Shown here one piece after another: positions 14,401 through 53,296 of a stretch of DNA of 64,000 nucleotides (its first letter is position 1; each line of letters starts with the position of its first letter). A program made the position numbers and the translations under genes. The stretch comes from Eledone cirrhosa (taxonomy: Eukaryota): assembly GCA_964016885.1 (NCBI GenBank), contig OZ024741.1, positions 496,001 to 560,000 of the forward strand. Direction: 5' to 3'. The notes under the pieces are model-generated. The model ran no database searches and had not been told where the DNA came from. It saw only the letters and a program-made list of their open reading frames with translations.

Positions 14401-14880
14401 AATAACTACTACATCTGACTAACAAACTATCCTCTTGCATTATCTATGTTAACTGCCGATTGTATTTTAATTTTGCTTTGATTTTGTTTTAATGTGATTT
14501 TGATTTTGAATTTGAATTGCTATACAGAAATATAATATAATATATGTCACTCCACTATACATCAATATATACATATGTATCTATATGTCTCTTGCGTTGG
14601 AAAGGAGGTCAATCATGTGTACAAACATTGAAAAATGCTCCGAAGACTCCAAGCCTAGGTTTGGATGAAACAATTGTAAGTGAATAAATGCTTTGAACAT
14701 AGCTTTGATTCTTGTGAATTCTATATAACTGCTCTGTAGAACAACTGATGTTATTACATTGAGCTATTTATCTTACTGGTAATAAGGTAGTAATAAATTA
14801 CTGACCTTCACTGTTTAGGGTTTAAAATATATATAACTATAAAAAGTTTTAGTATATACATAACCATAAATAGTATCCTT
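11466..14880 (+). mobile_element. Penelope-like retroelement, 5'-truncated, with inverted 5' pLTR
   Basis: ORF 11750-13153 has RT C-terminus (YRDD, VNFLD, SNHP) and GIY-YIG endonuclease (CNC..CPL..CLIKDIIY, YIGST...FKTRYNSH, CNLCLLE); 11466-11705 is the reverse complement of about 14465-14727. Confidence 0.9.
14636..14682 (+). ncRNA. Type I hammerhead-like ribozyme (variant core CCGAAGA) in Penelope pLTR
   Basis: tgct-CCGAAGA-c-tccaagc/ctag/gtttgga-t-GAAA-caattg-TA-agtg; antisense copy at 11505-11551 has core TCGAAGA. Confidence 0.6.
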
Positions 14881-15013
14881 AATATTATATATAGATATAT
14901 ATATATATATAAGTATTGAAATTTCCGTTGAAAACAGAAAAGGTCATAGAAGTGAAGAGTGCTCTATGTAAGTATCAGAGCAAAATTTAATGTATAAAAA
15001 TCAATACAATATA

Positions 15014-15091
15014 ATTACCTCATTACCAGAGGTTTCCCGAATGAGGCAAATACGAAAGAAACATCTTCATTCGTTCGTCAGACGAGGCAAT
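15014..15091 (-). ncRNA. Type I hammerhead ribozyme (mirror copy)
   Basis: Reverse complement of 16366-16443, with differences only in the stem II loop. Confidence 0.78.
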
Positions 15092-16365
15092 ATAAAACAT
15101 GGGTAAATACTTGGAAAGTCTCATCAAGAAAAGCAAAAAAACAAAAAAGATATAGACAAATGAATTAGAATATGAAATATATAATAATCTTTCAAGAAAT
15201 ATAGTTAGGTGTGTGTATATGTATGTATATACGTTCACAGATGTGCATATATGTGTATGCACATATGTATACGTATAGTGAAAAAGTGTGCGTAAATATA
15301 ATTTAGGGCAAATGTATCTGTATGTCTGTAATCTACAGACAGAATAGATACATCATAAGAAAATGAAGGCACGCGCATAAACACACCTACACACACGTAC
15401 ACTTAGATGCGGAAGTAAAAGAGGTAAGGGAGTGTAATAATTAAAGGAAAGTATCAATCTCGATATATTTATAAAAATGGAACAATTTAGAAAGAAAAAA
15501 TTAAAGAAAAGAAGACAAAAAAGGTACATACATACACACACGTATATCTCACAAAAAAACGCAAAAATATACATGCTTATATACACACGCACACTTACAC
15601 ATCCATACGTTCGATACGTACACACACACACACACACACACACATACTTACACTCACGCATATTGACCTGTTTGCATGCACACGTATGTGTATGTGATTT
15701 TATATCCGTGTTTTTACATCTAGGTTTTATGTTTTGTTCCTTTTTTCTTCTCCCCCTTTTTTTTACATCCTCATTTTTATGCGTGTGCATGCAAACAGGT
15801 CAATATGCGTGAGTGTAAGTATGTGTGTGTGTACGTATCGAACGTATGGATGTGTAAGTGTGCGTGTGTATATAAGCATGTATATTTTTGCGTTTTTTTT
15901 GTGAGATATACGTGTGTGTGTGTATGTACCTTGTTTGTCTTCTTTTCTTTAATTTTTTCTTTCTAAATTATGTTCCATTTTTATAAATATATCGAGATTG
16001 ATACTTTCCTTTAATTATTACACTCCCTTACCTCTTTTACTTCCGCATCTAAGTGTACGTGTGTGTAGGTGTGTTTATGCGCGTGCCTTCATTTTCTTAT
16101 GATGTATCTATTCTGTCTGTAGATTACAGACATACAGATACATTTGCCCTAAATTATATATTTACGCACACTTTTTCACTATACGTATACATATGTGCAT
16201 ACACATATATGCACATCTGTGAACGTATATACATACATATACACACACCTAACTATATTTCTTGAAAGATTATTATATATTTCATATTCTAATTCATTTG
16301 TCTATATCTTTTTTGTTTTTTTGCTTTTCTTGATGAGACTTTCCAAGTATTTACCCATGTTTTAT

Positions 16366-16443
16366 ATTGCCTCGTCTGACGAACGAATGAAGACGTTTCT
16401 TTCGTATTCGCCTCATTCGGGAAACCTCTGGTAATGAGGTAAT
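16366..16443 (+). ncRNA. Type I hammerhead ribozyme
   Basis: 10-bp stem I ATTGCCTCGT/ATGAGGTAAT, core CTGACGA (16376-16382), stem II CGAATGA/TCATTCG, GAAA (16421-16424), stem III ACC/GGT, GUA triplet. Confidence 0.8.
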
Positions 16444-16480
16444 TATATTGTATTGATTTTTATACATTATATATATATAT

Positions 16481-51200: not shown

Positions 51201-51591
51201 TCCTTATCTATTCTCTATCTCTTATCCATGGTTAATCTATTTTTTATCTATGGTTAATCTATTTTTATCCTTTGTATATCTTACTTTTACCCATTGTATT
51301 TTTACCCATTGTATACCCACCATTCATCTCTTAGCTTTTGCATACTCGTCCATGATATGTTATTTGTATTAGTCTATACTATATGTGTTGCATATGGCTG
51401 CCTGTTGTGTGGTTGCATGCGGGTGCTCATGCTTATGCGTATGCTTGTATGTAACTGTATGTTAACAATACCCTGCCCAACTGTGACTGATAGCACCTCT
51501 TATTTTTCAATGCTTATTTTTCAATGTTTATTTTTTATTTCTTCAATGTCTTGGATTTGTTATTGCTTGTGTAATATGTAATCACTCTTTA

Positions 51592-51637
51592 TGCTCTGAT
51601 GAGTCCCACTTATAGTGTGGACGAAACACTGTTAGCA
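51592..51637 (+). ncRNA. Minimal type I hammerhead ribozyme
   Basis: tgct-CTGATGA-gtcc-cac/ttata/gtg-t-ggac-GAAA-c-act-GTT-agca: canonical core, G-C closing stem II, very short stem III, GUU triplet. Confidence 0.85.
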
Positions 51638-51839
51638 AGTAAAGATATACCTATGCTCTAAGCGTTCTTTGTTGTTAATTATATATATGTATATATATAT
51701 ATATATATACATACATATATATGTATATATATATATATATATACATACATATATATGTATATATATATATACACTCACATATATATATGTACATACACAC
51801 ACATACATACACATCAATAAAAAAAATTACAATATACCA

Positions 51840-53000
51840 AAATATACATCTAATATACATTCTCCACAGCACCTAACATGGCCGACTACATGGCCAAAAC
51901 CAACGATGTAAAGATGGGGAACATCGACTGTCTGTCGGAGCGTGGAGGACCTCTTGGGGACTGGCCTTCAAATAATTACCTAGCTCCCGAGGGTGCCGCC
52001 ACGCCTGCGGAAGGCGATACAATCCAACGCCAGGTGGGAACGAGTGGCAAGGGGGAGATCACCGTGCCGGCGGAACAACACCCTGAGAATCGTGAGGGCC
52101 AAGCGTCCGAAGCGAACAAAATAACAACAGAACTTGTAACTGCAGAGCAGGCACCCAGTGCCCCCTGCAAGGAAAATGCCTGACGAAGGGCCTGGTATAC
52201 AAATGTGTGGTTAGCACCCACAATGTAAAGCGCACCTACATCGGCGCAACATCCACGACCTTTAAATCGCGGATCAAGGACCGGAGCAAGAGGCACTCCA
52301 CTAGGCGGGCGGACCTGGTGTGGGACCTGAAAGGCAAAGGCACCCCGTACGCCCTTGACTGGAGTATCATTCGGCACGCGAATGCATACTCGGCTGGAAG
52401 TAGAAAATGTAGTCTATGCCTATACGAGGCCATGGAAATAGTCAAACTGAAGGATGACGCGGTCAACCTGAAATCAGAAATTATCATGACCTGCAGTCAC
52501 CAGAGAAGGTACACACTCTCCGCATGGAATCCCCCGGGAAGCCCAGGTTAAGGACATTCAGCGGAGCATGCGCCGACCAGAGCGACGAAACGGGTTCAAG
52601 GGATCGGACACCATACCCTGATGACATTATATGCCCCGTGGGGTAAACCAAGATAACCCAAGATGCATACCCGACTCTGCACGTCACCCTAGGCAGGAAC
52701 ATCGCCTGAGCCGAGACAGGTTGACCCGGATTCCACGGTCGCTCAGTCAGGTACTTTGCACCCATAGGACAACACACCTCAACCACAGTGGCAGACCCCA
52801 ATATGACCAGGCTACACACCCCCATGCATGTGTACCTTTTCAATCGTGAATACATACTCTCCACGTGTTCCATTTTGGAACACATATTATTTGTTCCGTA
52901 CACAGACCTAAGTGTGCACCTTATACTCCCCATATGTACTATATTACACACATACACATACCTTCTCCTTTCTCCTCTCTTTTTTTAATATATCTCTATG
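51840..53000 (+). mobile_element. Penelope-like 3' fragment (GIY-YIG endonuclease)
   Basis: In frame from about 52135: CNCRAGTQCPLQGKCLTKGLVYKCVV...YIGATSTTFKSR...CSLCLYE...NLKSEIIMTCSHQ. Confidence 0.8.
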
Positions 53001-53296
53001 TGATGTTATATGCATATTTTAATACATTGTATATTTATTTTATTGTTTTTATATGTATGTATATGCGTAGGTGTGTGTGTATGTATATATATATATATAT
53101 GTGTATATATGTGTGTGTGTATGTAGAGATATATATGTGTATATATAAGGATTAAAATACTGGAGCGTGTTGGAGTTAAACACCCTCTTTGTATTATAGA
53201 AATGACAGTAAAAGGTATAGCTCAATGTAATTAAACAGAACCGAAGAATTATGAAAATAAAACAAAGAAGCCTTCAATACATCAAAAGTCTTTATT

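Follow-up and report, generated by a model that had tools for sequence, protein, structure and literature searches.

A duplicated bulged hairpin lies at the insertion-end sites of Hydra-clade Penelope-like elements in Eledone cirrhosa and is a candidate RNA signal for internal reverse-transcription starts

Introduction

The question considered here is where reverse transcription starts on the transcripts of Penelope-like elements (PLEs) and how their optional tail arises; in 2024 internal initiation was described for one element, with no signal identified. The question is raised again by a stretch of 64,000 nucleotides (nt) from Eledone cirrhosa (GenBank assembly GCA_964016885.1, contig OZ024741.1, positions 496,001 to 560,000; hereafter the window, in whose numbering coordinates are given). 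In this window an earlier note had described a nine-base motif, ACATHGAGY, downstream of the hammerhead ribozyme in five dissimilar Penelope-type families (here A to E), and had proposed that it is a cis signal defining the element end or start. What is this motif, and is it tied to the points where copies end? We found that the motif forms the 3' side of a small hairpin with a bulge, that the element has two such hairpins, and that insertions end a few bases before one or the other. Comparison establishes the hairpin as such, the covariation of its arms, its duplication and the positions of the ends. We consider it probable that the hairpin is an RNA signal bound by the reverse transcriptase (RT)-endonuclease of the element, where it would set the start of reverse transcription at two internal sites.

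The motif is one arm of a bulged hairpin

The five motifs lie at 14756-14766 on the forward strand (A) and, on the reverse strand, at 14960-14969 (B), 46814-46824 (C), 48163-48173 (D) and 53218-53228 (E). All five positions and strands were confirmed, and these are the sole ACATHGAGY matches in the window. As had been noted, each lies downstream of a hammerhead, and we place it 62-84 nt past a minimal type I core: a hammerhead descriptor scan gave GAAAC-to-motif distances of 84 nt for A, 62 for B, 74 for D and 78 for E, and the motif of C lies 80 nt past a core (46905-46977, with a long stem II) that the descriptor missed and that was read from the sequence. The description of the surroundings as dissimilar also holds. 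The hammerhead-plus-tail regions share short patches only, the longest being 54 nt at 76% between D and E and covering the hammerhead, so that they are not recent homologues along their length, and the endonucleases of the other families are 34-52% identical to that of A. The bare 9-mer is not enriched in the window over shuffled background, its five matches comparing with 4.1 ± 2.1 expected, which is the level of chance.

Every motif has a complementary arm upstream, and the two together form RYTC-TGN..loop..NYA-TN-GARY, a four-pair stem followed by a two-base bulge on the 3' side and an inner stem. In family A the hairpin reads GCTC-TGT..ACA-TT-GAGC (14731-14764, forward strand). Those of the other families, all on the reverse strand, are at 14961-14981 (B), 46816-46840 (C, in an ACTC..GAGT register), 48165-48186 (D) and 53220-53241 (E, a G.U variant). 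The loop measures 3-20 nt, and ~55 nt in one family. Thus the conservation claimed for the motif stands, but the conserved unit is this bipartite hairpin and not the linear 9-mer. The 9-mer is a poor descriptor: of the 43 bare matches in 1 Mb of arbitrary genome sequence, no more than 13 had a 5' arm within 30 nt, and 5 further matches were members of the long-loop family. The tight pattern GSTCTGN{5,8}ACATNGAGC gave 14,871 matches in the 3.0-Gb genome against 4 for the reversed pattern, and a relaxed hairpin pattern gave 90,868 against 8,202. Among 30 sampled tight-pattern loci, 25 were of PLE type and 5 were tandem satellite.

Next, we considered covariation between the arms. In eight hammerhead-linked families that were collected without demanding pairing, all 24 variable cells were paired, against 18.8 ± 1.7 after shuffling, and 37 of 5000 shuffles scored equally high. 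In an alignment of 24 lineages 166 of 168 cells were paired, and there were 27 two-sided changes where 9.7 ± 2.5 were expected. At E-values up to 1, none of the covariance models of Rfam 15 matched a hairpin of the five families; the Rfam scan of the window returned microsatellite noise and two sub-threshold hammerhead matches only. Two clusters found with the hairpin pattern were set aside, one being antisense to endonuclease coding sequence and the other lacking a tail context.

Two hairpins and two insertion-end sites

The earlier note had also observed that the motif is absent from shorter, inverted partner copies. This proved correct for A, B, D and E, whose partners stop ~17-28 nt before the motif, at (TA)n. 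In family A the inverted short copy (11460-11708, reverse strand; hammerhead 11516-11547) ends in (TA)n at the position that we call site 1. The short copies of B (15779-16472; hammerhead 16376-16425), D (51069-51684; hammerhead 51596-51627) and E (54383-54494; hammerhead 54410-54435) are on the forward strand, that of D being downstream of an endonuclease fragment at ~49080-49479 on the same strand. Family C also has a short partner, a copy of the pseudo-long terminal repeat (pLTR) in the sense of the open reading frame (ORF), which occupies 63301-64000 on the forward strand, runs past the window and ends ~270 nt outside it in the same way, short of hairpin 1 at (TA)n.

Full-length copies of A and D carry a second, smaller hairpin, GCTC-C..G-TT-GAGC (hairpin 2), directly after the tail and ~20-70 nt before the start codon. 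Among the window families hairpin 2 is established for these two (one family D contig extends into it) and not for B, C and E; a pattern search after the tail of family E gave no match. At 17 ORF starts located by protein similarity, a closed hairpin 2 was present at 12, a long-loop form at 2 and the 3' arm only at 1, the remaining 2 being truncated, whereas the background was 22 of 9,986 windows.

The ends of insertions cluster at the two hairpins. Short ends joined to TA fell 3-7 nt before hairpin 1 in 38 of 42 cases, with 12 more early-stopping short copies that were not TA-joined, and TA-joined tail ends fell 1-9 nt before hairpin 2 in 79 of 81 cases from six families, a count from which two anchors matching TA runs had been dropped. 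In family A all 20 tailed copies reach the second site (site 2), and 17 of them cross internal TATA patches on the way (0-5 per copy); therefore, TA microhomology alone does not set the end. Two discrete end sites thus bound an optional extension in these elements, and inserted copies lack the hairpin that adjoins their end. The fixed spacing to the element end that was proposed earlier does exist, but it is measured to the 5' foot of the stem and not to the 9-mer. Which arm carries the tail varies, being either the ORF-linked or the inverted one (A as compared with C and D).

A Hydra-type family represented by the 5' regions of loci L143 and L126 has both hairpins with long loop inserts (~55 nt and up to ~95 nt), and its ends retain the same distance to the stems.

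Occurrence in other hosts

Published consensus sequences from other hosts also contain the hairpin. In the supplement to PMC8557442, Hydra-2_Ajap and Hydra-2_Amil (sea cucumber and coral) end with it, Hydra-1_Ajap begins with two hairpins and Hydra-1_Crog has a looser variant; none was seen in the sequences given there for Hydra-1_Amil and Hydra-1_Obim.

We also examined metagenomic homologues collected by protein similarity only. An earlier metagenome scan with a single protein query had found no relatives. The present scan gave 78 loci, of which 23 were 5'-truncated and 3 had too little upstream DNA, leaving 52 that were usable, some of them redundant. The hairpin was present in 47 of the 52, and two hairpins in 31. 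For 43 of the hairpin-bearing homologues the expectation from shuffling was 0.28; the reverse strand is an invalid control for the strict pattern, the arms being near-palindromic (17 of 43). The first inner pair was paired in 61 of 62 metagenomic hairpins, as T-A or C-G in hairpin 1 and as C-G in 33 of 34 cases in hairpin 2, and among the 13 3' copies that could be evaluated, 10 stop 0-6 nt short of a hairpin.

Outside the Hydra clade, two related consensus sequences from Chara, Chlamys-4 and Chlamys-6, have a similar GCTC..TT-GAGC bulged stem at their 5' starts, which we count as a single lead. Heptamer searches of the Naiad/Chlamys supplement, which were shallow, gave no terminal hairpin for Naiads among the matches listed. 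A speculative possibility is that the paired bulged stems are of ancient origin and serve telomerase-related RTs, beyond the Hydra clade too, as a portable start tag of ~20 nt. If this were true, the tag would do for retroelements what template-positioning RNA elements do for telomerase, and such enzymes could begin to copy any RNA from a selected internal position.

A candidate signal for internal initiation

The end positions lend strong support to the earlier proposal that a conserved cis signal goes with the element end. The forms suggested for it, namely a double-stranded DNA site like that of I-TevI, a 3'-end-formation box or a downstream promoter element, fit less well: the motif supplies one arm of a stem-loop whose arms show compensatory changes and whose loop varies from 3 to ~55 nt, it is doubled, and the hairpin adjoining each end is not copied. 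In particular, a linear double-stranded site with a fixed cut distance does not agree with covarying arms lying 3 to ~55 nt apart. The absence of the adjoining hairpin from the product points to the template.

We therefore favor a model in which the hairpin works in the RNA. The element protein would bind one of the hairpins on the sense transcript, and the nicked (TA)n target would pair with AU-rich sequence immediately 5' of the stem. Complementary DNA (cDNA) would be primed from there, so that the hairpin goes uncopied. A start at hairpin 1 would give a short copy, and a start at hairpin 2 a tailed copy containing hairpin 1 and the spacer. If both target strands are primed, once each, the result may be the inverted pair that is usually seen, in which one arm is short and the other tailed. 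Two internal start sites would therefore explain the known optional tail. Since the hairpin at each end is uncopied, a copy that bears the ORF and ends at site 2 would have to come from a template with hairpin 2 placed after the ORF and pLTR. Such a template could be a tandem transcript, a circle cut by the hammerhead or the result of a template jump, and the hammerhead would thereby gain a possible role. At loci L180 and L188 an upstream repeat reaches >1 kb 5' of the hammerhead, which is compatible with tandem, circular and jumped templates alike.

The closest precedent for this model is the Poseidon element of Anolis carolinensis (PAc), whose RT starts in vitro at two internal RNA sites matching the tail ends (Frangieh et al. 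2024; PMC11167929). PAc, which is a predicted dimer, nicks both strands of AT-rich DNA, and both are extended (PMC11167929). The Eledone elements are alike in having AT-rich targets and two putative RT start sites within the RNA that bound the tail. PAc differs in that it belongs to another clade, its tail lies inside the ORF, and initiation takes place in an AC-rich stem-loop, with no conserved motif defined in the accessible text of the report (PMC11167929).

Several points tell against an RNA signal of this kind. The 166 of 168 paired cells in the alignment of 24 lineages come from rows chosen by eye among 41 clusters, with eight letters fixed by the search pattern, which inflates the paired fraction. 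Single-sequence folding is modest (z of -1.0 to -2.9), and in families C and E the structure of lowest energy is not the comparative one. The aligned hairpins hold 14 G.U cells against 1 A.C cell, so that wobble pairs weakly favor the sense strand, but 9 of the 14 sit where the pattern permitted only C or T. As for the ends, TA microhomology blurs their positions, and the loci of family D were picked with a tail-length query, which favors ends at site 2. In addition, 7 of 13 hammerhead clusters have no hairpin. The tail of a Neptune/Nematis-type family in the window is also without one, although this family has two fixed ends, so that the motif is not required for two-site ends. Finally, it is from comparison that we infer protein binding and initiation in the Hydra clade.

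We also weighed other explanations. The hairpin could act as DNA, if the GIY-YIG endonuclease recognized it on a single-stranded cDNA or donor intermediate and cut a few bases 5' of it, so that the insertion is resolved to a short or a tailed end. This would predict the same end geometry; the tail has been attributed to endonuclease-mediated resolution (PMC8557442), and the D. virilis endonuclease required the tail in order to recognize and cut plasmid DNA (PMC11167929). However, such variable loops and compensatory changes are ill suited to a double-stranded site, the wobble pairs lean, if weakly, to the sense strand, and PAc produces both tail ends by RT initiation in vitro (PMC11167929). 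A DNA-level role on a single-stranded intermediate may exist, yet as the explanation of the ends we regard it as unlikely. It is also conceivable that the hairpin directs formation of the RNA 3' end, by cleavage or termination just 5' of the stem, so that the RT, like that of other non-LTR elements, would begin at a genuine RNA 3' terminus. Here too the same ends would be expected, with the terminal hairpin missing from every inserted copy. This seems improbable to us, given that a hairpin of 16-35 nt is small for a ribozyme and that the dominant PAc product starts internally regardless of a 3' extension of the RNA (PMC11167929).

Another possibility is that the hairpins serve translation or transcription, while the ends are set separately, whether through TA microhomology or through recombination with neighboring (TA)n. 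The near-constant distance between hairpin 2 and the start codon in homologues would suit this notion, as would the AT-rich nature of both end sites. It is, however, difficult to reconcile with the passage of family A tailed copies over internal TATA patches to site 2 and with ends that lie 0-9 nt from either hairpin in many families and hosts, and we consider it very improbable. Chance, or recent common ancestry of the five tails, might be suspected from the chance-level count of the 9-mer in the window. It is already refuted by enrichment genome-wide and across hosts and by divergence, in that the endonucleases are far apart and no long DNA similarity connects the tails.

Comparison with known signals

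In UnaL2-type long interspersed nuclear elements (LINEs), a hairpin lies within the copied 3' tail. The hairpins described here differ in lying 3' of the start site, in that the terminal one is not copied, and in being two. For the eel UnaL2 LINE and its short interspersed partner, the conserved bulged hairpin of the 3' tail is needed for retrotransposition (PMC1636434). PLE RTs are the nearest retroelement relatives of telomerase (PMC8557442), and a functional analogy, proposed as an analogy only, may be drawn with the epsilon element of hepatitis B virus and with telomerase RNA. In these template-positioning elements a small bulged RNA places the RT at an internal start, and in hepatitis B virus epsilon protein priming takes place from the bulge.

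The elements and the tail (PMC8557442, PMC3846280) as well as internal initiation (PMC11167929) are already known. No description of the hairpin was found in the accessible text of PMC8557442, PMC4209133, PMC7229834, PMC13282606 and a 2026 retrozyme preprint or in the abstract of PMC1636434, and literature searches, with subscription papers and Repbase notes outside their scope, left it undescribed. We suggest that it is a new cis element within a known class, well supported by comparison, whose mechanism we infer. The doubled hairpin covaries and allows both ends to be predicted, with a tolerance of a few bases, in many invertebrate hosts; as such it offers experiments a precise target and annotators a rule for element boundaries.

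Identity of the elements and anatomy of the window

We assign the five families to deeply diverged Hydra-clade PLEs by their diagnostic motifs, since the CxCX5C linker, the missing CCHH motif and the RWK-like and DKT motifs match the definition of Craig et al. 2021 (PMC8557442). In the translations, CxCX5C is present in A, B, C and E (in D, truncation of the window copy affects this region), CCHH is missing and CxxC and CxH flanking conserved E and N are found in A-E, RWK occurs in B, RWR in A and D, and DKT in A. Full-length ORFs of family A are ~830 aa long, with a C-terminal GIY-YIG endonuclease after the RT in one ORF, and in B, C, D and E an endonuclease lies upstream of the pLTR. The hammerhead in the pLTR and insertion into (TA)n agree with the Hydra clade of C-terminal endonuclease-bearing PLEs, as do the inverted copies and the optional tail (PMC8557442). 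Our elements differ in tail length (~70-160 nt against a published 30-40 nt) and in the ~4.7-kb units of family A, where hammerheads are 4.2-4.9 kb apart; the published length of under 3 kb is a tendency only (PMC8557442). A Pfam search recognized none of the Hydra-type proteins, and the nearest named protein relatives are from Argonauta.

In family A a 5'-truncated ORF (11657-13153, forward strand) encodes the C-terminal part of the RT, the CxCX5C linker and the GIY-YIG endonuclease. Its hammerhead core (14640-14671, forward strand) precedes a tail of ~160 nt from site 1 to site 2 (14728-14888, forward strand), after which full-length relatives have hairpin 2. The tailed copy of B (~14911-15687) has its core at 15032-15081 on the reverse strand. 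The tails of A and B face each other over one (TA)n run (14888-14911), and PLE insertions are stacked in TA microsatellites all over the window. Element C extends from ~46770 to a point slightly outside the window and has D, E and LINE fragments nested within it; it comprises a tailed copy (~46770-47695, with the core given above on the reverse strand) and an endonuclease fragment with CxCX5C (52096-52551, forward strand), and locus L178 joins the same 3' untranslated region and pLTR. In D the core is at 48248-48279 on the reverse strand and the tail runs to ~48100; the copy is rearranged at 48618-49479, where an N-terminal ORF fragment (reverse strand) abuts the endonuclease fragment (forward strand) at ~49079. 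The core of E (53307-53332, reverse strand; tail to ~53145) is a weak match to Rfam Hammerhead_1 (29.1 bits, under the cut-off), and an Rfam hammerhead search of the whole genome returned essentially family E alone.

The Neptune/Nematis-type PLE occupies 17745-19981, 22607-23634 and 16468-16733, with an ORF at 17745-19322 and a CX4CxxC linker. It has a variant hammerhead, with GAAAG for GAAAC, and its fixed ends are ~56 nt apart. A hairpin following its tail at locus L222 was rejected as an adjoining insertion of another family, whose own context is seen at L246, and 19 other loci were without a hairpin.

Variant classes were observed elsewhere in the genome. An abundant, apparently non-coding class of ~620-bp units (L132:8826, L242-L249 and L252) has hairpin 1 and no canonical hammerhead within 230 nt, and no autonomous partner was found for it. 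The 5' regions of L154 and L164 represent a twin-hairpin Hydra-type family with a hammerhead-like fold, in which the core reads CAGAAGA for CUGANGA. A tandem array at L127-L128 (G000:C3, ~200,077,700-200,084,500) consists of ~15 retrozyme-like units, all of which are 468 bp long and carry a type I hammerhead; it is without the bulged hairpin and has a different stem-loop near the TA-joined end. The window also contains putative Helitron-like Rep/PIF1 helicase fragments, recognized from translations (42156-45696, reverse strand), and several LINE fragments, which we presume to be RTE-like, at 5830-6828, 26940-27932, 56012-58497 and 60267-62694.

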